From Gammaproteobacteria bacterium (GTDB lineage: Bacteria; Pseudomonadota; Gammaproteobacteria; Ga0077536): DNA of 64,000 bases. The stretch spans positions 704,001-768,000 of the forward strand of contig CAXXLL010000003.1 of assembly GCA_963662545.2 (NCBI GenBank). Direction: 5' to 3'. Below the pieces are notes generated by a model that worked only from the letters and a program-made list of their open reading frames with translations, had not been told where the DNA came from and ran no database searches. The translations under genes were made by a program, and so were the position numbers. Each line of letters begins with the position of its first letter. Position 1 is the first letter of the stretch. Below are positions 4,813 to 53,781 of the stretch, in pieces.

Positions 4813-4827
4813 GGGGCGCGAGTCTAG

Positions 4828-4987
4828 CAGCCTGTCGGACTTAGGAAGAATTGACTTGGGCGTTGGGATAGCGGTCCAAATGCGCCATGGTTTTCGTTAA
4901 ATAGCCCCGCTATTCGCCTCAAACCATGACACATTTGGCCTCGCTCTCCCAACCGCCTCGCTACGATTCCCTAAGTCCGACAGGCTG
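4828..4987. mobile_element. MITE-like element, family C
   Basis: Perfect 18-bp IR cagcctgtcggacttagg / cctaagtccgacaggctg with CTAG on both sides (4824-4827, 4988-4991); internal fold-back with aatagccccgctatt apex. Confidence 0.85.
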
Positions 4988-10387: not shown

Positions 10388-10406
10388 TTTTTAGATAGGT
10401 CTATTG

Positions 10407-12677
10407 ATGACACGAATCAGCGAAATGACCGGGGTCGATTTCAACGGCATCGAGCGGCCCTATGTACCGCCCAAGATTTTGCGCATTGCCGAGAAACTCA
10501 AGCTTCACGGCGACTGGATTACGGACATCGATCCGGTGACCTACGAGGTCGTGCGCCACAATTTGTGGCAAATCAACGAAGAACACGGAGCCACCATCCA
10601 GCGGCTCTCGGGTTCGCCGGTGGCCATGTACGCGCTCGATCTCAACCCCTCAATACTCAACGAGGACGCCGAATTCGTCTACTTCGGGCCTTATATGCAG
10701 TACATGTCTGGCGTCACCGACACCCAGGTGAAATGGACCATGGAGTTCCGTAGCGATAATCCCGGCATATCCGAGGGTGACATGTTCATCGCCAACGATC
10801 CCTGGGTCGGGGCCGCGCACCAGCAGGACGTGATGTTGTTGTGCCCGATCTTCTGGGAGGACGAGTTGTTCTGCTGGGTGACCAACTGCCTGCACCAGTA
10901 CGACATCGGCGGGATCACGCCGGGCAGCTTTTGTCCGTCGGCCGAATCGGTCTACGACGAGGGCATTCTGCTGCCGCCCCTCAAGATCATAGAGCATTAC
11001 GAAATCCGCAAGGACATCGAGGCAGTGTACTTGCGCGCGTCGCGCAAACCCGAGCTCGTTGCGCTCGACTTTCGCGCTCAGATGGCCGGCAACACCACTG
11101 CGCGCGCGCGCGTGCTCGAACTCATCAAGCGTTACGGCGCCGCGACCGTCAAAGGCGTCATGAAACGCATCATCGAAAATTCCGAGAAATCATTTCTCGA
11201 CAAGATGGCGCGCCTGCCGGATGGCGAATGGCATGACCGTACCTACGTAGAGGCGTGCCGGCCCGGCGACCGACGCACGCACCGTGTGATGCTGGGCCTG
11301 CGCAAGGAGGGCGACAAACTCATCTTCACGAATGACGGCACAGCTCCGCAGGACGGCGCGATGAATGCCACCTATTCCGGATGGCGCGGTTCAATCATGG
11401 TCGCGGTTAACGAATTGCTTTGCTGGGATCAGTATTTCGCGTGTGGCGGCGCGCTGCGTCACATCGAATTCGATCCGACCCCCGGCACGTTCAACTGCGC
11501 CGATTTTCCGGCCTCGGTGTCGACGGCGCCGATTCAGTCGATGGAAATATCGCTTTATCCGGCCTACAACGCCATCTCGAAGATGATCTATCCCGACCCC
11601 GAGCTTCGCCGCGACATCATGTGCATCGGGGGTACCAGTCAATGGCCGGCGACGCTCTTCCGCGGCATCGACCAGTGGGGCGAGCATTACGGCTACATAC
11701 TCGTCGATCCCATCGGCGGCGCCATCGGCGCTTTCTCCGTCGCTGACGGTATCAACACCGGCGGCCAGGCGCGTACGCCCATCTGCCAGCTACCGAACAT
11801 CGAGCATACCGAACAGAGTTTCCCGGTGCTGTTCCTGTATCGCAAAGAACTGACTGATTCGGGCGGCGCCGGCAAGTATCGCGGCGGCCTCTCGGCCGAA
11901 TCCTGTTTCATCCCGCACAACACCGACGTGATCATCCAGGACACCTTGTCGTCCGGCAATGCCACGCCGACCTCGACCGGCATGATGGGCGGCTATCCGG
12001 CGAGCACCAATGCCTACACCTTTGTGCGCAACAGCAACGTGTTCGACTGCATCGATTCGCGGCAGATGCCCGAGGACGCCGGCGAGCTCGAAGGCGAGGA
12101 AATCACCCTGCAACTCCGACAGGAAAATTTCGAGCAGCACGCGAGCGACGTCTACGCTGTCCGCTGGACCGGCGGCGGCGGCTTCGGCGATCCCTTTGAC
12201 CGCTCGGCCGCGGACATCGATCAGGATCTTGAAGACTTCGCCATTACGCCTGAAGCTGCGCGCATGATTTACGGCGCGATTCTGGACGCCGACGGCCGCG
12301 TGAATGGCAAGAAAACCGACGCCGAACGCGCGCGCATCCGCGCTGCCCGCGTCAACGGCGGCGGGCAGCGTCGCATCGGCGAGACAATATACGAGGCAAC
12401 TACAGGCTTAACCGTCAAGCGCGACGGAAACGGACGGTACTGGGCATGCGCGAAATGTTCGGCGTACTTGGGGCCGCTTAGCGCAAACTACAAGGATGCG
12501 TGTATCCGCGAGGACAGGGAAGTTTCGTCTTGCAATCCTTTGATTGGCGATCCGTCGCGCTTCATCGACGACCCGGTGGTCTTCCGTCAGTTCTATTGCT
12601 GCGGCTGCGGTACTTTGATCGATAACGAAGTCGCGGTCGCCGACGACCCGGTGCTGCAGGACATCAAGCCCGGGTAG
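10407..12677 (+). CDS. Hydantoinase/oxoprolinase subunit B with C-terminal acetone-carboxylase-gamma-like Zn domain
   Basis: NDPWVGAAHQQD and CLHQYDIGG metal sites, DSGGAGKYRGG, GGGGFGDP; C-terminal CAKC...FYCCGCGTLIDNE. Confidence 0.9.
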   Translation: MTRISEMTGVDFNGIERPYVPPKILRIAEKLKLHGDWITDIDPVTYEVVRHNLWQINEEHGATIQRLSGSPVAMYALDLNPSILNEDAEFVYFGPYMQYMSGVTDTQVKWTMEFRSDNPGISEGDMFIANDPWVGAAHQQDVMLLCPIFWEDELFCWVTNCLHQYDIGGITPGSFCPSAESVYDEGILLPPLKIIEHYEIRKDIEAVYLRASRKPELVALDFRAQMAGNTTARARVLELIKRYGAATVKGVMKRIIENSEKSFLDKMARLPDGEWHDRTYVEACRPGDRRTHRVMLGLRKEGDKLIFTNDGTAPQDGAMNATYSGWRGSIMVAVNELLCWDQYFACGGALRHIEFDPTPGTFNCADFPASVSTAPIQSMEISLYPAYNAISKMIYPDPELRRDIMCIGGTSQWPATLFRGIDQWGEHYGYILVDPIGGAIGAFSVADGINTGGQARTPICQLPNIEHTEQSFPVLFLYRKELTDSGGAGKYRGGLSAESCFIPHNTDVIIQDTLSSGNATPTSTGMMGGYPASTNAYTFVRNSNVFDCIDSRQMPEDAGELEGEEITLQLRQENFEQHASDVYAVRWTGGGGFGDPFDRSAADIDQDLEDFAITPEAARMIYGAILDADGRVNGKKTDAERARIRAARVNGGGQRRIGETIYEATTGLTVKRDGNGRYWACAKCSAYLGPLSANYKDACIREDREVSSCNPLIGDPSRFIDDPVVFRQFYCCGCGTLIDNEVAVADDPVLQDIKPG

Positions 12678-14833: not shown

Positions 14834-16342
14834 ATGAAAATCAAACCACCTACCTTAGATGACCTCGACCTACTTGCGCAGCAATACGGACTCGAACTTT
14901 CCATCGACGATCTCGAATCGTTCCAAGGACTGATGGCGGGACCGATCGCCTCCTACGAACGCATCGATCAATTGACCGAACCCAAACCGACGGTCAAATA
15001 TCCGAGAGCCGGGGGCTATCGCCCGGAGCCGGGTGACAATCCGCTGAATGCCTGGTATCAGAAGTGCGCGATCAAAGGCGCGCGCGGCGGCAAGCTGAAA
15101 GGCAAGACCATCGCAATCAAGGACAACATCTGTGTGGCCGGGGTGCCGATGATGAACGGCGCTTCTGTGCTCGAGGGCTACGTGCCCGACATCGACGCCA
15201 CGGTCGTCGCCCGGATCCTCGATGCGGGCGGCGAGATCGCGGGCAAGGCCGTCTGCGAGAACTTGTGCTTTTCGGGCGGCAGCCACACTTGCGACACCGA
15301 GCCCGTAAAGAATCCGCATAAACACGAGCACACGACCGGCGGATCCTCTAGCGGCTGCGGCGCGCTCGTCGCCGCCGGCGAAGTCGACATGGCGATCGGC
15401 GGCGATCAGGGCGGCTCGGTTAGAATTCCGGGCAGCTGGTGCGGAATTTATGCGCTCAAGCCGACCCACGGCCTGGTACCCTACACCGGTGCGTTTCCCA
15501 TCGAACTGACACTCGATCATCTCGGGCCGATGACGCGCTCGGTTGCGGACTGTGCGCTATTGCTGGAAGTCGTCGCCGGATCGGACGGCATGGATCCGAG
15601 GCAGCGGAACGTGAAAATCGACCGCTACGGCAAGGCGCTGACGGGCGACGTGTCGGATCTGAAAATCGCCGTCGTCAAAGAGGGTTTCGGATGGGAAGGA
15701 CTTTCAGAGGACGACGTCGACACCAAGGTGCGAGAAGCATCACAACTTTTCAAGGAGCTCGGTGCTAAGGTTGACGACGTTTCGATACCGATGCACCGGG
15801 ACGGCCTCCATATCTGGAATGGCATCGCCATCGAAGGCGCCGCCCAAGTCATGATCAAGGGCAATAGCATGGGTACCAACTGGGAGGGCTACTACAACAC
15901 AGGTCTCCTCGATGCGTTCGCCAGGGGACGCCTCACCCGCGCGAACGATTTATCGGAAACGACCAAGCTCGTCATGCTGATGGCTCAGCACATGGAAGAC
16001 AACTATCATGGCCGCTATTACGCGAAGGCGCAGAATCTGTCCAGGAAACTGCGCGATGAGTACGATGCGAGGTTGCGGGATTACGATCTCCTGATCATGC
16101 CGACCCTGCCGCTCAAGGCCACCAGAATTCCGGCCGCGGACTGCCCCCGCGAGGAAACCGTCGCGCGGGCGCTCGAGATGATCAATAACACCTGTCCGTT
16201 TGACGTCACCGGACATCCGTCAATGACCGTACCCTGCGCCATGTCGGACGGCCTGCCAGTCGGCATGATGTTGACGGGACGGCATTTCGACGAAAGCACG
16301 GTCCTGCGAGCGGCTCATGCCTTCGAACAGGCGAATAAGTGA
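14834..16342 (+). CDS. Amidase (amidase signature family, nitrile hydratase-associated)
   Basis: IAIKDN catalytic Lys, GGSSSG, GGDQGGSVRIP; first gene of the NHase operon. Confidence 0.93.
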   Translation: MKIKPPTLDDLDLLAQQYGLELSIDDLESFQGLMAGPIASYERIDQLTEPKPTVKYPRAGGYRPEPGDNPLNAWYQKCAIKGARGGKLKGKTIAIKDNICVAGVPMMNGASVLEGYVPDIDATVVARILDAGGEIAGKAVCENLCFSGGSHTCDTEPVKNPHKHEHTTGGSSSGCGALVAAGEVDMAIGGDQGGSVRIPGSWCGIYALKPTHGLVPYTGAFPIELTLDHLGPMTRSVADCALLLEVVAGSDGMDPRQRNVKIDRYGKALTGDVSDLKIAVVKEGFGWEGLSEDDVDTKVREASQLFKELGAKVDDVSIPMHRDGLHIWNGIAIEGAAQVMIKGNSMGTNWEGYYNTGLLDAFARGRLTRANDLSETTKLVMLMAQHMEDNYHGRYYAKAQNLSRKLRDEYDARLRDYDLLIMPTLPLKATRIPAADCPREETVARALEMINNTCPFDVTGHPSMTVPCAMSDGLPVGMMLTGRHFDESTVLRAAHAFEQANK

Positions 16343-16366
16343 ACGAATCCGAAATGGAGCAAGACT

Positions 16367-16978
16367 ATGAGCGCAGGGCATGACCACCATACCCGACCGC
16401 TGAGCGACCCCGAGCTCCGGATCAAGGCACTGGAGCAGGTGCTGACCGAGAAAGGCTTGATCGACCCCGCTGCGGTTGACCTACTGATCGAAACCTACGA
16501 AGAAAAGGTCGGCTCGCACAACGGTGCCAAGGTCGTGGCAAAGGCCTGGACCGATCGCGAATACAAACAGCGCCTGCTCGAAAACGGCACCGCCGCGATC
16601 GCAGAACTCGGATTCTCGGGAATTCAGGGGGAAGACATGGTGGTGGTGGAGAATACGGCGACGGTCCACAACATGCTCGTGTGCACCCTGTGCTCCTGCT
16701 ACCCGTGGCCCACGCTGGGCCTACCGCCAGTGTGGTACAAGTCCGCGCCGTATCGCGCGCGCGCGATCAGCGAACCGCGCACGGTTCTGAAGGAATTCGG
16801 CGTCGAGATCGGCGACGACATGGAGATCAGGGTCTGGGACAGCACGGCGGAACTCCGCTACATGGTCCTACCGGAACGCCCGCCAGACACCGAGCACATG
16901 AGTGAAGAGGAACTGGCCAAATTGATCACCCGTGATTCTATGATCGGTGTCGCCAAGATAGCCCCCCGGGACGAATAA
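16367..16978 (+). CDS. nthA: Cobalt-type nitrile hydratase alpha subunit
   Basis: VCTLCSCYP metal-binding motif (Thr/Tyr variant indicates Co-type). Confidence 0.96.
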
Positions 16979-16989
16979 GGGCTCGACCG

Positions 16990-17649
16990 GTGAACGGCAT
17001 TCACGACCTCGGCGGCATGCACGGCTTCGGGCCGGTCGCGCCCGAAAAAGACGAACCGGTATTCCACGCCGAATGGGAAAAACGCATGCTCGGGATGTTC
17101 GCGCCGACGTTTGCACTGGGTTTTTACAACATCGACGAGTTTCGCCATGCGATCGAGCGCATGGGTCCGCAACAATACCTGGCGACTTCGTACTACGAAC
17201 ACTGGCTCCATGCCCTGGAAACGCTGGCCTTGGCCAAGGGCGTGATCACCGAGGAAGAACTGCACACCGGCCATGCGGCGGTCGGTGCAGCCAAGTCCGA
17301 GCCAGCTATAAAGGCCGAAGACGTACCCAAGATCGTTGCTACCGGCGCGAGCGCGCGGGTCGACGCCGACGTCAAGCCTAAGTTCAAGGAAGGCGACATG
17401 ATCGTCGTCAGGAACATCAACCCGCCGTCACATACACGCATGCCGCGCTATGTGCGCGACAAACTCGGCTGTATCGACCGCGACCACGGCGTGTTCGTAT
17501 TTCCCGATTCGAGCGCCCACGGCAAAGGTGATAAACCCCAGCATTGCTACAGCGTGTACTTCAGCGCGCAGGAGTTGTGGGGCTCCAGGGCCTCGCGTAA
17601 CGATTCCGTCTACGTCGATTTGTGGGACGATTACCTGGTGCCGGCCTGA
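16990..17649 (+). CDS. nthB: Nitrile hydratase beta subunit
   Basis: MNGIHDLGGMHGFG, DEFRHAIERM, SYYEHW, HTRMPRYVR. Confidence 0.96.
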   Translation: MNGIHDLGGMHGFGPVAPEKDEPVFHAEWEKRMLGMFAPTFALGFYNIDEFRHAIERMGPQQYLATSYYEHWLHALETLALAKGVITEEELHTGHAAVGAAKSEPAIKAEDVPKIVATGASARVDADVKPKFKEGDMIVVRNINPPSHTRMPRYVRDKLGCIDRDHGVFVFPDSSAHGKGDKPQHCYSVYFSAQELWGSRASRNDSVYVDLWDDYLVPA

Positions 17650-17654
17650 TTTAA

Positions 17655-17817
17655 GAAACCTCTGAATAAGTCATGGCACATCTGCCTTGCCCATGAAATC
17701 GCGCGGCTCCGCGTTACGAACCTTGGCCCATAGTCCCCGCCATTGCCTGCGATTCGTGCCTTGACCTGCACCATGGCATGAACCATTCAGACGCACCATG
17801 ATTTATTCAGAGGTTCC
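17655..17817. mobile_element. MITE-like element, family B, copy 2 (inside NHase operon)
   Basis: Colinear and highly similar to 2054-2215; ends gaaacctctgaataagtca / tttattcagaggttcc; flanks TTAA / GTAA. Confidence 0.85.
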
Positions 17818-17825
17818 GTAAGCCC

Positions 17826-18161
17826 GTGACGAATCCATTCGCCATTCCTCCAGTCGAAGAAATTCCGCTCGTGCCGACCGACGCAAACGATGAAATCGTG
17901 TTCAAAACACCGTGGGAAGCGAAAGCCTTCGCACTGGTCGTCCACCTGCATCAGCGCGGTCATTTCACCTGGCCGGAATGGACCGCGCGACTGGGCGAGG
18001 AAATCGAAGCGGCCGGTGTCGAAGATGACGGCAGCGGTTATTACCTGCTGTGGTTGGCCGCGGCAGAAAAGTTGGTGGTGGCCAAGTCGATCTGCGGGGC
18101 AACCGACCTCGCCGATCGAAAGGCGGCACTGGTAGCGGATCAGGGACGGCCTGCGGGTTAA
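17826..18161 (+). CDS. Nitrile hydratase accessory (activator, P14K-like) protein
   Basis: VFKTPWEAKAFAL, FTWPEW, YYLLWLAAAEKL; follows nthAB. Confidence 0.88.
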   Translation: MTNPFAIPPVEEIPLVPTDANDEIVFKTPWEAKAFALVVHLHQRGHFTWPEWTARLGEEIEAAGVEDDGSGYYLLWLAAAEKLVVAKSICGATDLADRKAALVADQGRPAG

Positions 18162-43304: not shown

Positions 43305-45566
43305 CTATTTCCGGGCCTTGGCGGCTTTCTTCCTGGGTTTCGCCGCGCGCTTGCAGGCCTCGAGTTCACGCTCGAGTTCGGCGATGCGGACATCCTTGGG
43401 ATTCGGCATCATCACCGGAACGATGGCATCCGCCGGACAGGTATCGTCGCGCGAACCGCGATAGATCAGATCCCGGTCTTTCCACGACCCGTAGTAGGGA
43501 AGGTTTTTCGGCGGGTGCTCGGTTTCCCATTGCGCGACGAATTCCTCGTAAGGCTTGCCGCGCTTGATGCGTTTCTTGCGCTCGGCCTTGCGCGCTTTTT
43601 CAGTCGCCTTCAAATCGACCGCGCCGCTCTCTTCGTCGAGCACGACATGGTAGATGTTCTTCACGGTGTTCATCGAGATCAGGGCGTCGAGATACTCTTG
43701 CGAGACCGCTTCGGGTTCGCGTTCGAGCACGTCGCCGTAACCGCCGCCGGACCCTTGAGTCAGCATAAAGAGTTCGCCAGGCTGGGCGAATTCGAGCTGC
43801 ATGCCCATGTGATGGGTGGTGTACTTCGCGCCCGGAAACGGTTGATCGTTCATGATGTCTTCAATGGTGTAGCGCAGTAGATCGCGTCTGTCCTTCATCA
43901 CCTCGAACACGTTGACGCCCTTGACCTTGCACAGGGGATAACACCCGGGCGCATAGCCGCCGAAAATGCCCATCGTCGTCGGGAATTTGGAACCGATGCT
44001 GCAACACATGAAGCCCCACATGGAGCTGTCTTTCATGGTGGCGATCTGCTGGTAGCCGTGTCCGCCCCGGAACTTCCCGAACCCGTTCGCGTCCTTCATC
44101 AACTTGTTCGGCACGATCTTCATGATCGGAACTTCTTCCTCGATGAGTTCCTGTTCACCGATATCGGCCATCGGCGCAAAGATCGGCGCGATCGAATGTT
44201 CGCCGTCGCGATTCCAGCGGGCGGCGCCGCCCATGCCGTTGAGATCGGCACATACGTTCCCCACCAGTTCCCCGTACTGGTTCACGCCGCCGTAAATGAA
44301 CGTCACGATCATGTTGTACCAGCCGGCGATGATATCCGTGGCGCGGTGCCCGGCGCTGTAGAGAAATTTCGGGACGCCGATCTGCACCGCGGTAAAGCTC
44401 GGAAAAAAGGTCATCATGCTCTGCGCGTTCGGGGCCTCGGGCGAACAATGCAGGGTTGAGCGATCGTCGGTCAGCACCTTCATCGGGGCAAACACCGCCT
44501 GGTTGCGAGGCAGATCCGGCCACACGAAGCTCAAGAATTCCTGGGCGAGCATGCCCTTTAGCGACGCCAGCACCGTGTTGTTCGCGCGATTGAGAAACTC
44601 CGGTGAAGAACCGCGAAAGTCGATGGTCAATTCGTCGCCGCGCTTGTCGAGTTCGCAGCGGATCTTGATCAGGCAATTCTCGCGCAAGGTGCCGTCCGCA
44701 AACAGATTGGTGCGCACTTTGCCGTCGGGCCAGGTGGCGAGCCGCCGCCGCGTTTCCTGCTCGGTGTCGGTCATGGTTTTGCGCAGTGTGGCGATAACCG
44801 CATCGACGCCGTACTCCGTAATGATGTCGTCGATCCTCGATTTCATGCGCATGGCCGCGAACAGCTTGGACTTCATGCCCTCGAGCTGGAGCTTGGGCTC
44901 GCGCACCGAATTCTGCAGAAAGGTCATGAGGTCGCGGCGAAATTCGTAGTGCTCGCCGACGAGTATCGGCGACATCTTGAGGCCCTCGTCAAAGGGAGAT
45001 TCGGCTGCGGATGGCATGCCGCCCGGTTCACAAGCGCCGTTTTCGCCTTCGTGCACGATGGCGCCGGTGAAGCAGATCAACTGGCCCTCGTGAAACAACG
45101 GGATCATCAGACTTTGATCCGTATTATGGATATTGCCGTAACGCGCATCGTTGTGCATGAAGATGTCGCCGGGCTTGAGGCCGACGGTCGGATCGTCCCT
45201 CCAGTATTTCAGAATGAATTTCGTCGGGTGCTGGGTCAGAACCGAAAAGATCAACACCCCGCCCATGCTCGCCATCGCGAGGTCGCCGTGCATGGACCAA
45301 ACGCCGGAGATCAAATCGCCCCACTTGGCTCCGGGCGCGGCGCCCATCTGCTCGACCATGTCGAAAGATTCGTTGCACGCCGTCTGCAGCTTGTGACGCA
45401 CCAGGTTGATCTTGTCCGAATCGTCGAAATTCCCAAGCGCTTCGAGTTCCCGCTCGGAGGCCGGCACGAGGCTGTGGTCCTCCATGATTTCGGGATCAGG
45501 TCCGAGAAACAGAACGTTCTCTTCGAGAAATTTCTCGATGACTGATTTTTCTTGATCACCACCCAT
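43305..45566 (-). CDS. Hydantoinase B / acetophenone carboxylase delta-like catalytic subunit
   Basis: HNDARYGNIHNTD and IVHEGENG metal ligands, GFGKFRGG, GSGGGYGD; start ATG 45566 with GAGGT RBS. Confidence 0.88.
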   Translation of the reverse strand: MGGDQEKSVIEKFLEENVLFLGPDPEIMEDHSLVPASERELEALGNFDDSDKINLVRHKLQTACNESFDMVEQMGAAPGAKWGDLISGVWSMHGDLAMASMGGVLIFSVLTQHPTKFILKYWRDDPTVGLKPGDIFMHNDARYGNIHNTDQSLMIPLFHEGQLICFTGAIVHEGENGACEPGGMPSAAESPFDEGLKMSPILVGEHYEFRRDLMTFLQNSVREPKLQLEGMKSKLFAAMRMKSRIDDIITEYGVDAVIATLRKTMTDTEQETRRRLATWPDGKVRTNLFADGTLRENCLIKIRCELDKRGDELTIDFRGSSPEFLNRANNTVLASLKGMLAQEFLSFVWPDLPRNQAVFAPMKVLTDDRSTLHCSPEAPNAQSMMTFFPSFTAVQIGVPKFLYSAGHRATDIIAGWYNMIVTFIYGGVNQYGELVGNVCADLNGMGGAARWNRDGEHSIAPIFAPMADIGEQELIEEEVPIMKIVPNKLMKDANGFGKFRGGHGYQQIATMKDSSMWGFMCCSIGSKFPTTMGIFGGYAPGCYPLCKVKGVNVFEVMKDRRDLLRYTIEDIMNDQPFPGAKYTTHHMGMQLEFAQPGELFMLTQGSGGGYGDVLEREPEAVSQEYLDALISMNTVKNIYHVVLDEESGAVDLKATEKARKAERKKRIKRGKPYEEFVAQWETEHPPKNLPYYGSWKDRDLIYRGSRDDTCPADAIVPVMMPNPKDVRIAELERELEACKRAAKPRKKAAKARK

Positions 45567-45607
45567 GGTCGTTACCTCGAAGTCGAAATCCCAAAGTAGA
45601 AAAAAGC

Positions 45608-47734
45608 TCAGGCATCCCTGACCATGACCGCAGAGCCCATGCGGCCCATCGTCAGATTCCATCCGGGCTCGACCAGATAGGTCGTGCGCGGGGTTTCGAT
45701 CAGCGCCGGTCCGGCGAGGTGCATGCCTTCGGCCACATCACTATGGTCGTAAACCGGGGTTGGGACGGGATCGTCGAGCTGCGGAAAATAGCAGGGTCGT
45801 TCGGTACGGGCCTTTGGCTGGTCGTCGTTTGACGCGGTCGAACGTTCGAGCGTCAGTCGTTCGTGCTCGACATAGGACACTACGCGCAGCACGTTGATCC
45901 GCACCCCGGCCTCGGGCGCCTGGCTGCCTTCACCGAATCGCTGTGCATAGTTGTTGCTGAATTTATCGAGCAGCGCAATGACGTCGTGCGGTGAGCTCAA
46001 GCGGGGACTCGGGCTCATCACACTGACCTGCGCGAGCTGGTTGCCGTAACGCATGTCCATTTCGACCCGCGTTTGCACGTCCTTTGGATCCACGCCCTGG
46101 CGTACCAGATCCTCCCGTCCCCGCTCTTCGAGTTCTTCGACGGTCTGATTGAATACTGTGTAGTCCTCAAGGACGTGCCTGAAGGTCGCGTCGTAAAGCA
46201 TGAGGTAGAGTGATTTTTCATGGATATGGAGCTGGTTCATGTTGCCAGCGCCCAAGGCGGCGAAAACCGAGCTGAACGGCGGAATGAGAATCTTCGCCAC
46301 GCCGATCTCGCCCGCATATCCGCAGGCATGGATGGGCGCACCGCCGCCGTAGCTCAGAATGGTGAAATGCTGCGGGTCGTACCCCTTGACCGCGACTTCC
46401 TTGAAAATCGCAGACGCCATATTGGCATCGACTTTGCGTTTGATGGCCTTGGCCGCCTCGATCAAGGTGAGTCCGGCCGGTTTCGCGACCGTTTCTTCGA
46501 TAGCGCGCTCGGCGCGGCGGCGATTGATCTTGATCGTGCCGCCGGCGTAGTTGTCCGGATCGAGATAGCCCAGGACCAGATTCGCGTCGGTGGTCGTCGC
46601 CAGCTTGCCACCGCGCCCATAGCAGGCCGGCCCCGGATCGGAGCCCGCGCTTTCGGGACCGACTTCGACCGCATTCCATAGACCATCAAAACGGGCAATG
46701 GACCCGCCTCCCGCGCCCAGGGTATGCAGGTAGGTCATCGGTGTGCTGACCAGCCAGCGGTCGATCACCGGATTGAAATCGTAGAACTTGACGCCGTCGG
46801 CCGTCACCAGACCGATATCGAAACTGGTGCCGCCCATGTCAGTGGCGATCACGTTCGGTTCGGCGAACTGCTCGGCGAGATAGTTGGTCGCTTCCAGACC
46901 GGCGACCGGGCCGGAATGAATCGTCTGCAGTGAATGGGTGGAATTGAGCTGCGCCATGCCCGAGGTGTTGTGGACCAGGAGCATCGGCCGTGCATAACCG
47001 TTACGGCGTAAAGCGACTTCGAGCGACGACATACCGTGATACATTTGATCATGGAGGTAGGCGTCCAGGATCGCCGACATGGTGCGCGAATACTCGGCCT
47101 TGCGCCCTGCGACGCGATGCGAAAGAACGATGGGCGTGGCGCCGAGCACGTAGGTCGGGTACTCATTCAGAATAATTCGCTCGACTTCCTTTTCGTGCGC
47201 CGGATTGACCACTGCGTTGGTCAGGGCGACGACGAAGCCCTGGCAGCCCTCGTCGACGAGCTTGCGCACCTGGGCGCGCACGTCTTCTTCCTCGACGCTC
47301 AGGTTCACCGTGCCCTTGTAGTCGATACGCTCCTTGATACCGACGATCATCGTCATCGGGATCAAAGGCTTGGGACGGTCGGCGCCAGGCAGATCCATTT
47401 GCTCGGCATGGGCCAACCCATCGCCGTACCCGCGCGCGCGCATGAGAGGAACCGTGGACTCGAAACCGGCGGTCGTCACCAGGCCGATGCGGGGCCCGTT
47501 GCGCTCGATCAACGCGTTGGTACCGAGCGTTGTGGCATAACGGACCGCGTCGACCGTGCTCAATACTTGACCGATGCTGAGATTCAATTCCGCGCATGCG
47601 TTTTCAAGCGCCTCCATGAAACCGGACGCCAGATTGTGATGGGTCGTTAAGGCCTTGGCTTCGATGTATTGGCCGTCGTAGACCAGGAAGCAATCGGTGA
47701 ACGTACCGCCGATATCAACACTAACCCGCCGCAT
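45608..47734 (-). CDS. Hydantoinase A / acetophenone carboxylase gamma-like ATP-binding subunit
   Basis: DIGGTFTD, YATTLGTN, SGPVAG, DMGGTSFD, GPESAGSDPGPACYG. Confidence 0.9.
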   Translation of the reverse strand: MRRVSVDIGGTFTDCFLVYDGQYIEAKALTTHHNLASGFMEALENACAELNLSIGQVLSTVDAVRYATTLGTNALIERNGPRIGLVTTAGFESTVPLMRARGYGDGLAHAEQMDLPGADRPKPLIPMTMIVGIKERIDYKGTVNLSVEEEDVRAQVRKLVDEGCQGFVVALTNAVVNPAHEKEVERIILNEYPTYVLGATPIVLSHRVAGRKAEYSRTMSAILDAYLHDQMYHGMSSLEVALRRNGYARPMLLVHNTSGMAQLNSTHSLQTIHSGPVAGLEATNYLAEQFAEPNVIATDMGGTSFDIGLVTADGVKFYDFNPVIDRWLVSTPMTYLHTLGAGGGSIARFDGLWNAVEVGPESAGSDPGPACYGRGGKLATTTDANLVLGYLDPDNYAGGTIKINRRRAERAIEETVAKPAGLTLIEAAKAIKRKVDANMASAIFKEVAVKGYDPQHFTILSYGGGAPIHACGYAGEIGVAKILIPPFSSVFAALGAGNMNQLHIHEKSLYLMLYDATFRHVLEDYTVFNQTVEELEERGREDLVRQGVDPKDVQTRVEMDMRYGNQLAQVSVMSPSPRLSSPHDVIALLDKFSNNYAQRFGEGSQAPEAGVRINVLRVVSYVEHERLTLERSTASNDDQPKARTERPCYFPQLDDPVPTPVYDHSDVAEGMHLAGPALIETPRTTYLVEPGWNLTMGRMGSAVMVRDA

Positions 47735-48098
47735 CGGACGCTCTCTCCCCGCTCAAGTGTGTTTCCTTGAGCTTGTCGATATCGAGTTCAATATCATTGG
47801 TTAAAGGATGGCCCGGTGGCAGGTACTCGTTTTCCACCATCGTGCCGCATGCCGGGCAATAGAACTCGACGATCCGACACCATTCGGGATCGGGTGCGTA
47901 GGTGTAGTCGTATTTATCCGCGTCGAGGATCGGCCGGTGAATTTCCCGTGGATCGCGGTCGTATACCAACAGCCCCTCTTTATAAGGCGAACGCGCGGGC
48001 CCGATATCGTGGCCGCAACGACGGCACAACCAACGCTCGGCTTCGAGCTCGATTTCTAGATATTCAGTTATTGCAATGGTCTTTCCAGCCATGGTCAT
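47721..48098 (-). CDS. Acetone carboxylase gamma / ApcB-like small Zn subunit
   Basis: CRRC..YKEG..EFYCPACGTMVENEYLPPGHP. Confidence 0.9.
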   Translation of the reverse strand: MTMAGKTIAITEYLEIELEAERWLCRRCGHDIGPARSPYKEGLLVYDRDPREIHRPILDADKYDYTYAPDPEWCRIVEFYCPACGTMVENEYLPPGHPLTNDIELDIDKLKETHLSGERASDAAG

Positions 48099-50023
48099 TC
48101 ACTCTCGAGGAAAAGATCGCCGTTGGTAAACACGCGTAAGATCCATCCGGCATCGATGATACTGGTGAGGTAATCGCCTCGAATGAGGCTCGGACCGGTT
48201 AACTTTTTACCGGGTTTGAGATCACGGTCATTGATCAGGGGTAATTCCAGCACGCGCTTGCCATCCAGGTTGATTTTAGTCTTAGCGCGCGCACGCATGG
48301 CCGTGTATTTCTTCTCCTTGTTCGCTTTCAAGCTCAAAGTCGGCAGTTCAAAGACGGCTCTCACCGTCAGCCTGGGATCCGATAATTTTTTGTTCACTTT
48401 GATTTTCTTGCCGGAGAACGGCTTGTCGACCACGATATCGTCCTTCGCACCCCACACGGATTTTTTATAGGTGCACGCGCTGGGATCGACACCCTCGCCG
48501 TACATGTCACGACGTAGACGGGATTCGAGCTCGGCGCCCAGCGCGCCGATGTCCTGTGAGGCGCCGTCGAGAGGCGCCTGGTATTCGTGGGCAAGGTGAC
48601 TGAAGCCGATGCCGAACGCGCTGAATACCGATGCGAGGCGCGGCACGATCACCTGCTTCATGCCGGCCGCGGCGGCGATGCCGCATGCGATCATCGGGCC
48701 GCCGCCGCCATAGGCCAGCAGGGCCGTCTCGCCCGGATCACAGCCGGCATTGTCGATGGCATTGGTGACTTCTTTGCCGACCAATTTCTGGAATTCGGTG
48801 ATGATGGTCGCAGCCGCCTCGGCTGCATTCTGTCCCAGGGCATCCCCGACATTCTTGACGACCGCCTGCTCGGCGCGCTCGCGATCGAGCGCGATTTCGC
48901 CGCCCAGGTATTTATCCGGATGGAGTACACCCGCTACGAGCAGTGCGTCGGTCAAGGTCGTTTCCGTACCGCCACGTCCATAACACGCAGGGCCCGGCGA
49001 TGCACCGACGCTTTCGGGTCCGATTCTGACCGTGCCGTTTTCGACACGAACGACCGAGCTGCCGCCCAGTCCGAAGCTGCGAATCGTCGGCAACGGAAAT
49101 GAGGTCGGGATGTTTTCGATCGCACCGTAGGCCAGCAGCGTCACCGCTTGACCTTTCACCATCGAGACGTCGGTCGTAGTCCCGCCCACATCCATCGCCA
49201 CGACGGCATCCAGACCATAATGTCTGGCGTAGGCGACCGCGCCCTCGAGCCCACCGCGCGGCCCCGAACCCCAGGTCTTGATGGCAGTCGTCTTGGCGAC
49301 CCGGGCCGAATCGCCGTCATTGCGGAAGATCAGCAGGGGTCTTTTCAAATGCTGCTCTTTACAGATGTTCTCGGCGCCATACAGAAAGTGCTCCATGCCG
49401 GGGTGCAGGTAGGAGTTGACCACCGCTGTGATCGTGCGGCGCGCAAGATCGGAATCCTGCGCAAGTTCGGATGATATGAGGAACGGGATCGCGCCCAACA
49501 GGTGGCGCGGATACCGATCGAGGAGAAGATCCTTGACGTTCTGCTCCGCTACCTCGGAACTCAAGGCGACGACCAGTCTCAAGGCGCCCTGCGCCAGCAT
49601 CCTGTTGACAGTCGCGATCAATTCGCCGGCTTCGATCTCGCCGTTGCTCGAAAAGCGAAGACCCACCGGTTTCTGCGGCACCATTGCGCGCCATAAGGCA
49701 CTGTCACCGAGTCTCGAAATGGCACCGTAGACGCTGTCTTCTTCGCCCGCATCGACCAGCACGGCTACCGCTGTGCCCTTGTGTTCGACCACCGCATTGG
49801 TACCGGAGGTCGTCGAGTAGCGCAGACAATCGGCTTCGCGAATCAGGCGCGCGGCATCGTCTTCACCGTAAAACTCTTTCGATCCCCGCTTCAGGATCTC
49901 CAGAAAACATTGGGTCAGGTCGTGCGGCGTCGTGGCTGTCTTGGCATGCACGACCTTGCCGCCGTCGCTGATGCACACATCGGTGAACGTGCCGCCGTTA
50001 TCGATATTGACCAGGATGCCCAT
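48095..50023 (-). CDS. Hydantoinase A / acetophenone carboxylase alpha-like ATP-binding subunit
   Basis: DNGGTFTD, YSTTSGTN, SGPRGG, DVGGTTTD, GPESVGASPGPACYG. Confidence 0.9.
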   Translation of the reverse strand: MGILVNIDNGGTFTDVCISDGGKVVHAKTATTPHDLTQCFLEILKRGSKEFYGEDDAARLIREADCLRYSTTSGTNAVVEHKGTAVAVLVDAGEEDSVYGAISRLGDSALWRAMVPQKPVGLRFSSNGEIEAGELIATVNRMLAQGALRLVVALSSEVAEQNVKDLLLDRYPRHLLGAIPFLISSELAQDSDLARRTITAVVNSYLHPGMEHFLYGAENICKEQHLKRPLLIFRNDGDSARVAKTTAIKTWGSGPRGGLEGAVAYARHYGLDAVVAMDVGGTTTDVSMVKGQAVTLLAYGAIENIPTSFPLPTIRSFGLGGSSVVRVENGTVRIGPESVGASPGPACYGRGGTETTLTDALLVAGVLHPDKYLGGEIALDRERAEQAVVKNVGDALGQNAAEAAATIITEFQKLVGKEVTNAIDNAGCDPGETALLAYGGGGPMIACGIAAAAGMKQVIVPRLASVFSAFGIGFSHLAHEYQAPLDGASQDIGALGAELESRLRRDMYGEGVDPSACTYKKSVWGAKDDIVVDKPFSGKKIKVNKKLSDPRLTVRAVFELPTLSLKANKEKKYTAMRARAKTKINLDGKRVLELPLINDRDLKPGKKLTGPSLIRGDYLTSIIDAGWILRVFTNGDLFLESE

Positions 50024-50168: not shown

Positions 50169-50310
50169 CGTGCAAGCGCGTGAGCGGGCGGAAACGAAGC
50201 GCGAAGATAAGCGTTTTTTGCAGTCCCGTCACCGACTGTTAAAGATTCTTCACCACCTGGCTCGACATAATCCTCGCGGCAGTAGCGCTGTACAACTCCT
50301 AGATAAAGTT

Positions 50311-50340
50311 AAGCTCGGTCAAATCCGGCACCCTTCGCCC
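50311..50340 (+). repeat. Direct repeat copy A flanking SSS transporter gene
   Basis: aagctcggtcaaatccggcacccttcgccc; 26/30 identical to 52032-52061. Confidence 0.65.
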
Positions 50341-50361
50341 AGGGGTTTGGAGAACTCGCGA

Positions 50362-51918
50362 ATGATATTCGATGTTTTAATCATCGTTTCGTATTTCGTC
50401 ATCATCATGGTCGTCGGCATCGTGTCGGCGCGACGTCAGACTGAATACACCGCCGAGGAGTACTTTCTCTCCTCGCGATCACTGAGATGGCCGTCCATTG
50501 CCATCTCCACCATCGCCACGAACATCCATGCCGGGCACTTCCTCGGCATGGCGGGCTCAGCCTACCTGTTCGGTCTAGCGCAGGCCAACCTCGAAATCAA
50601 CGCGATCGTCGGCATTCTCCTGGCGACATTCATCTTCGTGCCTTTCTACTTGGGCGCCCGCGTGACGACGATCAGCGAGTTCTTTGCATCACGATTCGGT
50701 CCCAAGGTGGGGCTCATCTATGCCGTGTTGATGATGGTGTTATATGGATTCATGTACCTGGGCTCCGCTCTCTTCTGGGGTGCGTGGGCCATCGATGGAG
50801 TCTTCGGCGACCTCGTCTCTTTCCTGGGCGACAGCGCACCCGTACGTCTGGCGTGGATGGTTGTGATCCTCGGCGTTTTCTCTTCCACCTATACCTACCT
50901 GGGCGGACTCACCGCCGTCGTGCGCACTGACGTGGTGCAGTTCGTCCTGCTGGTTGTGGGTGGCCTGATCATGTTGGGTCTGGCAATCCACGAACTCGGT
51001 GGCTGGTCCGAACTTTACATTCAGACGCCCGACAAGATGCACCTGCACCTACCTGCCGATCACGAAACGCTACCTTGGATAGCGCTCATCGGCATGAATT
51101 TGCTCAACCTCAACTATTGGGGCGCCAACCAGATCATTTTGCAACGCGTCCTCGCGGCCAAGAGCCTGGCGCATGCTCAGATCGGCCTCTTGGTGGGAGG
51201 GGTCCTCAAATACGTCATGGTTCTCATCATCATCGTGCCAGCCATCGCGCTGGTCGGCATCACTGCGGCCAATCCGCTCACAGACCCGGATCAAGCTTAT
51301 GTAACCATGGTTAATACGCTGCTCCCCAGCGGCTTGCGTGGCTTCATCCTATGTGGCCTGTTCGCCTCGCTGATGAGCACCGTGGATTCCATCTTCAACT
51401 CCGTATCCACCCTGTGGTCGGTGGATATCTATAAGCGCTACATCAAAACCGACGCCAGCGATACGGAGATGGTAAGAGCCGGGAAGTGGGCCATCGTCGG
51501 CACGCTCCTGACCGGTTTGAGTTTTGCTTTCATTCAGATCTACGTCAAGTTTGATAATCCTGAATTCCCATTGACGCATTGGTTCAACGAGCTCAGCTAC
51601 TACGTGAAGAATGGCTTCGTGCTCCTCATAGTCGCCGCCATCTTCTTGCTGCGACCTTCGCCCCGTCTCGTGCTGACCATGCTGGTGACCAGCATTCCTC
51701 TCACGGTGGCATTCAAGCTTGGCTTTCCCGACATGAATTACTTCGTCCGCTCCATGTGGATCATCTTGGGCCTTGTCCTCGGCACGGCAATTCCCACGTG
51801 GTTCAAGAATGGCTGGCGTCTCGACGTGAAGCTGGTAGTAGCTTCGAGTCCCGCTGTTGCGCGATTTGGTGTCGCGTTAGCTGCCTCCCTGATCGCTTGT
51901 CACATCATCTTCCACTGA
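50362..51918 (+). CDS. Sodium:solute symporter (SLC5/SSS family)
   Basis: EYFLSSR, ATNI, GGLTAVVRTDVVQ, QIILQRVLAAKS, ASLMSTVDSIFNS; ATG 50362 with GGAG RBS. Confidence 0.92.
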   Translation: MIFDVLIIVSYFVIIMVVGIVSARRQTEYTAEEYFLSSRSLRWPSIAISTIATNIHAGHFLGMAGSAYLFGLAQANLEINAIVGILLATFIFVPFYLGARVTTISEFFASRFGPKVGLIYAVLMMVLYGFMYLGSALFWGAWAIDGVFGDLVSFLGDSAPVRLAWMVVILGVFSSTYTYLGGLTAVVRTDVVQFVLLVVGGLIMLGLAIHELGGWSELYIQTPDKMHLHLPADHETLPWIALIGMNLLNLNYWGANQIILQRVLAAKSLAHAQIGLLVGGVLKYVMVLIIIVPAIALVGITAANPLTDPDQAYVTMVNTLLPSGLRGFILCGLFASLMSTVDSIFNSVSTLWSVDIYKRYIKTDASDTEMVRAGKWAIVGTLLTGLSFAFIQIYVKFDNPEFPLTHWFNELSYYVKNGFVLLIVAAIFLLRPSPRLVLTMLVTSIPLTVAFKLGFPDMNYFVRSMWIILGLVLGTAIPTWFKNGWRLDVKLVVASSPAVARFGVALAASLIACHIIFH

Positions 51919-52061: not shown

Positions 52062-52105
52062 GTGACCCTGGAAAATCGTTAAAAACCAGTGGCGATACGC
52101 GTAAA

Positions 52106-52125
52106 TACTGTATATAATACCAGTA
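52106..52125 (+). promoter_or_regulatory. LexA (SOS) box overlapping a TATAAT -10 element
   Basis: taCTGtatataatacCAGta is CTG-N10-CAG with an AT-rich spacer; TATAAT at 52113-52118; 23 bp before the ATG at 52149. Confidence 0.82.
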
Positions 52126-52148
52126 GTCCTGCTGGAGCGAAATACGCC

Positions 52149-53555
52149 ATGGAAGACCTCGCTATCACGCCTTGCCATACCCCGCCCGAGCTCCATCCCG
52201 AGCGGTTTCTCAACGACGCCCTGGAGGATTCGATCACCGCCCTCGCCGCCAACATCGCTGCCGCCACCTGGCAATTGCTCACGTTGATCGCGGAGTTCGA
52301 TCGCCGCGAAGTCTGGGGCAATCACGGCCTCAACTCTTGCGCGCACTGGCTCAACTGGCAATGCGGGATCGCACTCGGTGCGGCGCGTGAAAAGGTGCGC
52401 GTCGCGCGGGCACTGGAACACCTACCCCTTATCAGCGCCGCATTTGCAGCAGGCGTTGTGAGCTATTCCAAAGTGCGGGCCATGACCCGTGTAGCAACAC
52501 CCGAGAACGAGGACACCCTCTTGATGATCGCGCGCCACGGCACCGCGATGCATGTCGAGCAGACGGTCCGCGCCTACCGGCAGGTGCAGCGAATCGAAGA
52601 AACCGAGAAGGCGAACGGTGCACACAGGGCGCGCAGCCTGGACTGGTATTACGACGATGACGGTATGCTGGTCATTCAAGCGCGCTTGCCGGCCGAGACC
52701 GGCGCAATGCTGCTTAAGGCCCTGGCCGCGGCGGCGGACGATCTCGCGGCCGATGACGTGCCCACCGGGCAGATCAAAGAAACTGCCGTCGATGCCGACG
52801 TTCCCGCGGGAACGTCGGCACGCGCAGCGCATCCGGCGGCTGTACGGCGTGCCGATGCACTGTGTCTTCTGGGCGAGCAGTTCCTGGCGCATGGCGCGGT
52901 GACATCGAGGCAAACCGACCGCCATCAAATCGTCGTACACGTCGATCGGGACACCTTACGTGCCGCTGACCGCACGGCACGCTGCGAAATCGAGCATGGC
53001 CCGGCCCTGGCTGCGGAGACCGCCCGGCGGCTCGCCTGCGACGCCGGGATCGTCCAGATCGAAGAGGACGCCGACGGCCAACCGCTCGCCATCGGCCGCA
53101 AGACTCGCGCCGTGCCTTCCGCAATCCGCCGGGCACTCGAAGCGCGCGACCGCGGCTGCCGGTTTCCCGGTTGTACTCGCCACCGCACCGTCGATTCGCA
53201 CCATATCCGGCACTGGGCGGACGGCGGCGAGACCAGCGTTCAGAACCTTGTACTGCTGTGCCGACATCATCACCAACTGGTGCATGAAGGCGGCTTTTCA
53301 CTCGAACGGCGCGACGACGGCAAGCTTTTATTCCTGCGTCCCGATGGCTTGCCGCTCCCCGAGGTGCCGGCGCCAACGCCTGCGACCGAAGACCTTGCCG
53401 AATGGGTGCGGGCGAGCGGTCTTCACGTCTCCGCGGAGACGTGTGTACCAAACTGGCGTGGCGAGCGATTGGATCTTGATCATGCGGTGCTGGGCTTGTT
53501 GCAAAGTGACGGGCGGATGAATAACACGCGCATGCGCTTGAGCTCTGGATCGTAA
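52149..53555 (+). CDS. DUF222 (13E12-like) domain HNH endonuclease
   Basis: CAHWLNWQCG, AREKVRVARAL, SYSKVRA, RRADAL, ARRLACD, RDRGCRFPGC, HHIRHWADGGETSVQNLVLLCRHHH. Confidence 0.9.
   Translation: MEDLAITPCHTPPELHPERFLNDALEDSITALAANIAAATWQLLTLIAEFDRREVWGNHGLNSCAHWLNWQCGIALGAAREKVRVARALEHLPLISAAFAAGVVSYSKVRAMTRVATPENEDTLLMIARHGTAMHVEQTVRAYRQVQRIEETEKANGAHRARSLDWYYDDDGMLVIQARLPAETGAMLLKALAAAADDLAADDVPTGQIKETAVDADVPAGTSARAAHPAAVRRADALCLLGEQFLAHGAVTSRQTDRHQIVVHVDRDTLRAADRTARCEIEHGPALAAETARRLACDAGIVQIEEDADGQPLAIGRKTRAVPSAIRRALEARDRGCRFPGCTRHRTVDSHHIRHWADGGETSVQNLVLLCRHHHQLVHEGGFSLERRDDGKLLFLRPDGLPLPEVPAPTPATEDLAEWVRASGLHVSAETCVPNWRGERLDLDHAVLGLLQSDGRMNNTRMRLSSGS
52793..52820. repeat. Perfect 28-bp palindrome inside DUF222-HNH gene
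   Basis: tgccgacgttcccg|cgggaacgtcggca. Confidence 0.9.
53424..53443. repeat. Perfect 20-bp palindrome inside DUF222-HNH gene
   Basis: cacgtctccg|cggagacgtg. Confidence 0.9.
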
Positions 53556-53705: not shown

Positions 53706-53781
53706 TGGGGCCGGCTGTCCGACTCGAACGGACGACCTGATGCTTACAAAGCAACTGCTCTACCAACTGAGCTAAGCCGGC
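53706..53781 (-). tRNA. tRNA-Thr(UGU)
   Basis: GCCGGCT acceptor stem, GCTC/GAGC D arm, TGT anticodon, TTCGAGT T loop, encoded CCA; 76 nt. Confidence 0.95.

Follow-up and report, generated by a model that had tools for sequence, protein, structure and literature searches.

Mycobacterial genes that encode the DUF222 domain, known as 13E12 genes, are described as LexA bound and DNA damage induced (PMC3381160). One report counts 87 gene-conversion events in 10 of 14 such genes and ranks them with the strongest hot spots of this process (PMC13061034), and another, which defines 13E12 proteins as all proteins containing PF02720, finds that they coincide with inversion breakpoints with an odds ratio of 405 (PMC13157036). 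The available part of a paper on an HNH nuclease of M. smegmatis does not call its nuclease DUF222 (PMC9416677). Among palindromic sites with a dedicated reader, we used the parS and Noc site sequences given in PMC7383237 for comparison; a site lying within the gene of its own reader has a precedent in parS-359, within parB of B. subtilis (PMC4442127). Here, we describe an 18-bp dyad-symmetric DNA element carried inside the coding sequences of DUF222-HNH nuclease genes. We examined a 64,000-nucleotide stretch of contig CAXXLL010000003.1 from a Gammaproteobacteria bacterium (assembly GCA_963662545.2; referred to as the window), in which one such gene (positions 52149 to 53555, plus strand, 468 amino acids, identified from Pfam domain matches and the translated open reading frame [ORF]) holds two copies of the element. 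The element is real, specific to these genes, and kept by selection on DNA through codon choice and compensatory change. Among open-access papers and bioRxiv main texts, we found no description of the intragenic palindrome or of an assigned DUF222 function.

An earlier reading of the window (referred to as the original prediction) had called two perfect palindromes in this gene, sharing a core and a reading frame and placed in linker-like regions, and each of these points was confirmed. Site 1 (52793 to 52820) is a perfect 28-bp palindrome whose 14-nt arms (52793 to 52806 and 52807 to 52820) are 100% complementary with a spacer of 0; it contains the family 18-mer ACGTTCCCGCGGGAACGT at 52798 to 52815 and encodes DVPAGTS (amino acids 217 to 223) in a variable linker ("slot A"). 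Site 2, the perfect 20-bp palindrome CACGTCTCCGCGGAGACGTG (53424 to 53443), has 10 perfect pairs, contains the family 18-mer ACGTCTCCGCGGAGACGT at 53425 to 53442, and encodes HVSAETC (amino acids 426 to 432) in the C-terminal tail ahead of a W.GE.LD motif ("slot E"). It represents a rare variant, with GTC..GAC found in 5 of 90 family sites. The core ACGTYYCCGCGGRRACGT occurs exactly twice in the window, at the positions of the two 18-mers, compared to 0.00 occurrences expected from 100 shuffles. A shorter core with up to two mismatches gave 7 matches against 5.48 expected, which is no enrichment; it is the exact copies alone that stand out. In each arm, two positions distinguish one core from the other, and both are matched by compensatory changes (TC/GA versus CT/AG), as originally noted. 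In the protein alignment, residues 217 to 223 form a conserved island (column identity of 0.60 to 0.93, with 0.38 for D217) inside a stretch of 0.12 to 0.47, flanked by 22 inserted alignment columns on one side and 27 on the other; residues 426 to 432 form a similar island within the variable tail. Both sites thus lie in variable, indel-rich regions, in keeping with a linker-like placement.

A third, degenerate copy had also been proposed at 52755 to 52772 (plus strand), where the peptide DVPTGQ is similar. This claim did not hold up: only 2 of 9 pairs match in the family register, and the stretch contains only a 5-nt inverted repeat with a 3-nt spacer, below the level of 8 of 9 pairs applied in the census described below. 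It may be, at most, a decayed copy of the element. Across 52793 to 52888, on the minus strand, there is a sub-threshold Rfam match to the Pseudomonas small RNA P17 (20.5 bits versus a threshold of 45), which we took as chance.

To place these two sites in a family context, we sampled 80 related loci, with one genome per species, from Gammaproteobacteria, other Pseudomonadota, Actinomycetota, Rokubacteria/Methylomirabilota, Gemmatimonadota, Myxococcota, Acidobacteriota, and Rhodothermota. The DUF222-HNH family as a whole is far larger, with 48,378 cluster representatives at an E value of ≤0.001 and 8,212 at ≤1e-30 in a profile search. An ORF matching the HNH pattern was obtained from 75 of the 80 loci; the other five (L009, L043, L049, L069, and L076) were missed by the HNH regular expression and left out, and the family palindrome is still present in four of them. 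The gene tree was limited to ORFs of at least 380 amino acids (71 rows). Throughout these relatives, the element takes the form ACGTT[T/C]C[N]G|C[N]G[A/G]AACGT, and the peptide V[SP]A[EG]T is nearly always encoded by ACGTTTCCGCGGAAACGT or ACGTTCC(A/C/G)GC(T/G/C)GGAACGT. Scanning the loci with the pattern returned 88 matches in 106,065 nt of gene sequence, compared to 4 in 314,848 nt of flanking sequence. All four flank matches lie in or beside DUF222 genes: one at the C terminus of a second DUF222-HNH copy, two at orthologous positions at the 3' end of the upstream gene, and one at 250 nt upstream. The element does not behave as a dispersed repeat of the REP or RPE kind, given that the 64-kb window holds no further copies and the flank matches occur only by DUF222 genes.

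A census that used no pattern gave the same picture. Perfect 18-bp palindromes were present in 44 of 76 genes, compared to a mean of 2.1 and a maximum of 5 in 40 synonymous shuffles, and a single family accounts for 51 of the 54 perfect 18-mers. Sites with at least 8 of 9 pairs were found in 72 of the 76 genes (shuffle mean, 30.0). The census also recovered symmetric variants with the half-sites ACGTTGCCG, ACGTTACCG, ACGCTTCCG, GCGGTTCCG, and ACGTCCCAC. Counted over 90 sites, the complementary cells per pair number 90, 72, 90, 85, 89, 90, 90, 82, and 67, and beyond pair 9 they drop to about 30; since this is background, the symmetry spans nine pairs. Isolated half-sites were not enriched (40 versus a shuffle mean of 32.1 and a maximum of 45), and most of them are halves of imperfect palindromes.

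We compared the observed genes to versions in which synonymous codons had been shuffled within each gene (200 shuffles). Perfect pattern matches numbered 68, compared to 4.2 ± 2.0 after shuffling, and palindromes of at least 18 bp numbered 54, compared to 2.3 ± 1.4. Codon choice within the sites departs strongly from that elsewhere: GTT accounts for 76 of 81 codons (12.3% elsewhere), GAA for 54 of 57 (33.8%), GGA for 21 of 24 (11.5%), and ACG for 73 of 81 (40.7%). This bias is in part imposed by the pattern, which admits valine only as GTY, and within GTY, GTT makes up 94% in sites compared to 26% elsewhere. Two-sided, compensatory changes occur at 5 of the 9 pairs, with 55 such cells compared to 16.7 ± 3.1 when partners were shuffled (0 of 500 shuffles reaching this value), and 95.2% of cells are paired, compared to 28 to 47% when the partner was slid; these covariation figures lean high, the sites being related and chosen by pattern. 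One position shows all four pairs (T-A, C-G, G-C, and A-T). At nine sites the DNA is translated in a different frame, in eight cases giving ETR[FS][RS]GNVF-like peptides (e.g., ETRFRGNVF), and the ORFs that carry these sites remain in frame through the conserved C-terminal W.GE.MD motif. The identity of sites between sister genes (0.917, compared to 0.645 in flanks) is biased by the requirement that both sites match the pattern, and we do not count it as evidence. These data indicate, through the codon shuffles, the rare codons, the covariation, and the second-frame reading, that selection acts on the nucleic acid and not on the peptide. This was the central inference of the original prediction, and it is right. 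The original prediction had also proposed testing whether the codons of V[SP]A[EG]T stay palindromic with covariation in homologous genes, and this is what the homologues do; they do not keep the motif with non-palindromic synonymous codons.

The element occupies at least six positions within the gene and two reading frames. The variable linker accounts for at least 29 sites and is occupied in the window gene, as is the C-terminal position before W.GE.MD (8 sites). The remaining positions are the VVHVSAETL position (7 sites), the GP.VSAETSRRLACD position (17 sites), the C-terminal site in the other reading frame (9 sites), and the extreme C terminus (12 sites), while 16 sites fall outside these rule-based position classes. 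Genes carry one to four copies within their coding sequence; by a stricter pattern, there is one copy in 25 genes, two in 24, and three in 5. In three homologues (P0053, P0059, and P0063; alignment columns 245 to 316), the linker is expanded and holds three to five copies of the VSAET-type motif, indicating that site number can grow locally. Two loci (L030 and L045) carry the variant ACGTCCCACGTGGGACGT / ..GC, in which the center is CACGTG, as in parS, in place of CCGCGG.

The second DUF222-HNH copy noted above is represented by its 3' end at about 4800 to 4975 of locus L062, about 1.2 kb downstream of the first copy and in the same orientation, and its site lies at the extreme C terminus in the other reading frame. 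At the orthologous loci L002 (166 to 179) and L006 (1633 to 1646), the palindrome GTTCCGGCCGGAAC is found at the 3' end of an upstream AraC-like gene, 576 to 861 nt ahead of the nuclease ORF (stop to stop), and L006 has about 300 extra bases between this site and the nuclease gene. A more distant relative on a Rhodococcus erythropolis plasmid (L081, NZ_CP050126.1; 34% identity) lacks a site within its coding sequence. Immediately 3' of the stop codon of its upstream gene is the perfect 16-bp palindrome CGTCCCCGCGGGGACG (2244 to 2261; 8 of 9 family pairs), which lies about 95 nt before the ATG and is followed, before the start codon, by an actinobacterial SOS box, TCGAAC-N4-ATTCGA (about 2308 to 2325).

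What reads the element is a matter of weighing. On present evidence, it appears to be a duplex-DNA site that is read as two half-sites by a symmetric dimer, for which the product of the gene itself is the simplest candidate. The fuller statement, that the element is a dimer-binding site most likely serving the gene's own SOS-induced nuclease, is the one we tentatively prefer, at a little short of an even chance. In genes with 65% G+C, 84 of 90 sites have T-A at one particular pair, even though C-G would be both stronger and preferred by codon usage, which argues that sequence matters and not pairing alone. An asymmetric form, ACGTTACCG|CGGAAACGT, recurs in 9 sites of 8 genes despite an A.A clash in what would be mid-stem, favoring two half-sites over a stem. 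Moreover, sites within one gene share their variant: in 18 genes with well-separated sites, the mean half-site identity is 8.30 of 9, compared to 7.55 when permuted (maximum, 8.04; 0 of 5,000 permutations). This agreement extends across reading frames (L011, L036, and L071), and site variants follow the gene tree across phylum labels. Agreement within genes and along the gene tree suggests that the reader travels with the gene; taken together with the asymmetric half-sites, this favors a dimeric DNA-binding reader, which would most simply be the gene's own product.

Two of the alternatives do without a protein that recognizes duplex DNA. In the first, the main rival although an unlikely one, the element would be a structural hairpin in which pairing matters and not the duplex sequence, either in mRNA, where it might affect the stability or processing of a toxic nuclease message or make ribosomes pause on it, or in DNA that is single stranded or cruciform, as might arise in SOS-associated replication or as the substrate of a structure-specific HNH nuclease. 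The preservation of pairing by two-sided changes at five pairs, with four pair types at one of them, is what a stem predicts, as is symmetry-preserving, lineage-specific drift, and both window copies fold better as single-stranded DNA than all 200 shuffles (-16.1 kcal/mol for site 1 and -7.9 kcal/mol for site 2, each with a z score of -3.55). A stem does not account for the favored T-A pair or the recurrent A.A clash, however, and it leaves the sharing of variants among sites of one gene unexplained. The palindrome is perfect and has no loop, yet the innermost variable pair, next to the center, co-varies (CG 55, AU 14, and GC 3) although in a hairpin it would sit in the loop, and G.U-type mismatches are about as frequent as A.C-type mismatches (16 versus 18), with no excess of the former. 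Neither palindrome has a terminator-like T-run on the plus strand, and Rfam returned no family match in this DNA apart from the tRNA and the chance match mentioned above. The other alternative grants the DNA no function at all: V[SP]A[EG]T would be selected as a peptide whose codons are near-palindromic by nature and have been perfected by template-switch "quasi-palindrome correction." By the genetic code, the amino acids VSAET do fix 5 of the 7 inner pairs, and the motif occupies a conserved protein position (GP.VSAETSRRLACD). This peptide-only reading is already strained by the sites that keep the same DNA in a second frame as a different peptide, by the choice of the rare codons GTT, GAA, and GGA over the equally symmetric GTC and GAG, and by the copy that, in the distant Rhodococcus relative, precedes the coding sequence. 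Where a look-alike peptide is not palindromic (HVDAETL and RLPAETG), its codons are ordinary and G+C rich. In 120 homologues, residues change together as the DNA predicts, with S..E in 118 cases and P..G in 21, compared to P..E in 12 and S..G in 5; the symmetric types make up 97 of 120 motif instances, drawn from 150 cluster representatives of which 78 have at least one motif. We therefore consider selection on the peptide alone highly improbable.

Two further alternatives keep a duplex-DNA reader and assign it to something other than the gene. A conserved host protein, of the ParB/Noc family or another global DNA-binding kind, is suggested by a commonest form that is nearly identical from Gammaproteobacteria to Actinomycetota and Rokubacteria-labeled genomes and by its agreement with parS and the Noc site, 10 of 14 positions matching in either comparison. 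Sites of such a protein should not be restricted to one gene family, and their variants would not be expected to track the gene tree in place of host labels, as they do here (L018 and L034; L079 with L071); in addition, the central four bases are unlike those of parS, and we assign this explanation a low probability. We consider it similarly improbable that the element is a site for some other integration or recombination system exploiting these genes, for example that of a phage or element integrase, or that it promotes exchange between copies without the gene's own nuclease. The 13E12 elements are described as holding phage attachment sites (PMC3381160 and PMC13061034), and integrase sites are reported as short and partly symmetric (PMC3783163). 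Among our loci, a mosaic test of L002, L003, and L006 placed the 3' end of L006 nearer the paralogue type than its orthologue, a weak hint of conversion. A site that does nothing but serve an invader, on the other hand, would not be maintained across phyla, several to a gene, by purifying selection. There is no integrase or prophage beside the window gene and none among the commonest families of 120 flanking ORFs, and the DUF222-HNH family seldom appears on plasmids (5 of 72,556 records) or phages (1 of 50,697). For E. coli, no homologue was detected in 5,426 complete genomes.

The gene's own product as reader also has results that weigh against it. Co-evolution of protein and site among 46 typed genes involved only 5 changes on the tree and yielded no specificity residue, and in 190 proteins typed by a peptide proxy (12 changes; 8 to 9 independent pairs), only the residues of the motif itself co-vary with site type. 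A co-evolving, gene-encoded reader should have shown a co-varying column, although different lineages could use different residues. DUF222 showed no sequence likeness to any DNA-binding family in Pfam and PDB profile searches: Pfam at an E value of ≤10, run with the whole protein and three pieces, returned only DUF222, HNH, and chance matches, with no ParB N-terminal or helix-turn-helix (HTH) domain; PDB sequences gave HNH matches only (E ≥ 0.07) to the whole profile, with nothing for DUF222, and no match at an E value of ≤10 to the N-terminal profile. The suggestion in the original prediction that DUF222 resembles ParB and may bind the sites thus gains no support from these searches. The window gene and L072 each hold two different variants in one gene, and the concordance seen within other genes could stem from copying of sites inside the gene instead of from a shared reader. 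All four pair types at one position with compensatory change is also a classic mark of a stem. In four of the 76 genes, no site reaches 8 of 9 pairs, indicating that the element is not indispensable, and it was not found in the more distant DUF222 genes on one Mycobacterium plasmid and one Arthrobacter plasmid, making it a trait of a subfamily and not of all DUF222 genes. Finally, the mycobacterial recombination data come from distant relatives in which the element may be absent.

The preference for a gene-encoded reader draws in part on predicted damage control. A LexA-type SOS box, CTGTATATAATACCAG, lies at 52108 to 52123 (with TA...TA flanks, 52106 to 52125), 26 nt upstream of the ATG, and it is the single match in the 64-kb window to the pattern CTGTWWWWWWWWNCAG, for which 0.01 matches are expected. 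The box overlaps a TATAAT hexamer read from the sequence at 52113 to 52118. Upstream LexA-type boxes were found in 25 of 42 Pseudomonadota relatives, compared to 1 in 223,894 nt elsewhere in the same loci, and four Actinomycetota relatives carry GAAC-N4-GTTC, the box type of their own phylum, at the gene start. In silico, the window gene and its relatives thus appear to be under LexA/SOS control, as in the 13E12 family.

If the gene's own product does read the element, the DUF222 part would bind DNA and the HNH part would be the nuclease. DNA damage would lift LexA repression, and the protein might then return to its own gene, a weaker step in the scheme. There it could nick or cut the gene, creating a programmed recombination hot spot between copies, or it could repress transcription of that gene, a negative feedback that would keep a dangerous enzyme in check; we lean toward the former. 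The complete scenario, in which an SOS-induced DUF222-HNH dimer binds and nicks or cuts its own palindromes so that each gene copy is a programmed recombination hot spot, is possible if doubtful. The SOS induction of 13E12 genes and their status as conversion and inversion hot spots make a self-targeting, recombination-promoting nuclease attractive, with the reservation that those data come from distant relatives. Were this scenario true, the module would drive gene conversion and rearrangement between copies and maintain the gene family selfishly, which could explain the recombination and inversion hot spots at mycobacterial DUF222 genes.

The window protein matches DUF222 (PF02720) at amino acids 45 to 334 (52281 to 53150, plus strand) with 88.5 bits, above the gathering cutoff of 24.4, and so belongs to PF02720, and it matches HNH (PF01844) at amino acids 342 to 379 (53172 to 53285, plus strand) with 27.6 bits, compared to a cutoff of 21.4. 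The HNH core is apparently intact, as C337, C342, H351, H352, N366, C371, H374, H375, and H379 are invariant in 40 of 40 aligned sequences. The ATG at 52149 is preceded by GGAG at 52134 to 52137, and the reading frame is already open from a GTG at 52089. NCBIfam models gave only weak HNH likeness, and PADLOC anti-phage defense models returned no families at an E value of ≤0.01. Upstream of the gene is a sodium:solute symporter gene (50170 to 51918); 150 nt downstream is a tRNA-Thr(tgt) gene (53706 to 53781, minus strand), with its 3' end facing the nuclease gene, followed by SPOR, coaX-type pantothenate kinase, and birA-like genes. The G+C content of the nuclease gene (0.64 to 0.68 over 52250 to 53500) is above that of adjacent DNA (0.54 to 0.60), suggesting acquisition, and no direct repeat was found flanking the gene. 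The rest of the window encodes ordinary chromosomal metabolism, including two separate hydantoinase/acetone-carboxylase-like gene sets (8273 to 12677 and 43305 to 50023) and a cluster of amidase and nitrile hydratase genes (alpha, beta, and accessory; 14834 to 18161), all unrelated to the palindromes.

The original prediction had suggested a self-contained system, and the arrangement of the loci fits this description. In one genome, homology between paralogues starts at the SOS box and ends at the stop codon, with nothing shared outside this stretch. There is no conserved neighbor: among the 120 flanking ORFs that entered this test (of 135, with 15 left out), no more than 3 share any one Pfam family. 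Only 4 of 60 loci have a tRNA gene within 2.5 kb, indicating that the tRNA-Thr adjacency of the window gene is not a family trait.

DUF222-HNH proteins form a very large family of unknown function, and the element provides a first concrete and testable handle on it. If the gene's own product reads it, the gene would be a compact, self-recognizing nuclease module under SOS control, and this could also explain the gene-conversion and inversion hot spots at these genes. The element also shows clearly how selection on DNA has shaped the sequence of a protein, in that VSAET, VPAGT, and RFRGN exist because of the palindrome, which matters for annotation and for reading such motifs as protein features.

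How, then, does the element compare to described systems? It resembles the ParB-parS and Noc-Noc-binding-site (NBS) systems in being a short, spacerless, perfect palindrome that is present in few copies and conserved across phyla. The core GTTTC..GAAAC is common to the element and parS, and GTTTCCGCGGAAAC agrees with the parS core and with the Noc site at the 10 of 14 positions noted above. The label "parS-like" therefore stands for layout and, in part, for sequence; it does not extend to the consensus, which is not matched, the center being CCGCGG here and CACGTG or CCCGGG in those sites. The element is also confined to one gene family, whereas parS and NBS are spread around the origin, and the DUF222-HNH protein has no ParB N-terminal or HTH signature in Pfam and carries an HNH nuclease. 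The 13E12/REP13E12 elements are alike in having the same Pfam domain, SOS/LexA control, and repeats that are essentially the gene itself, and in being multicopy, the window protein having a candidate paralogue that is 90% identical. They differ in that the relationship is distant, with the Mycobacterium and Arthrobacter plasmid genes lacking the element.

Rickettsia palindromic elements are about 100 to 150 bp long and are dispersed in frame through many unrelated genes. Our element shares with them the in-frame palindromic DNA tolerated in permissive parts of proteins, and it differs in its length of 18 bp and its restriction to one gene family. The closest functional analogy is provided by homing endonucleases of the HNH and His-Cys box types, among them dimeric enzymes cutting near-palindromic sites of 14 to 20 bp. 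As in those systems, a free-standing, selfish-looking nuclease gene is associated with a long, specific, symmetric target-like site at its own locus and has spread across phyla out of step with taxonomy. The window gene itself does not qualify as a homing endonuclease gene, given that its sites are intact in the coding sequence, that it has no intron or intein, and that it lies between the symporter gene and tRNA-Thr. A homing site belongs to the allele without the gene, and insertion destroys it, whereas the site described here is intact inside the gene and preserved there.

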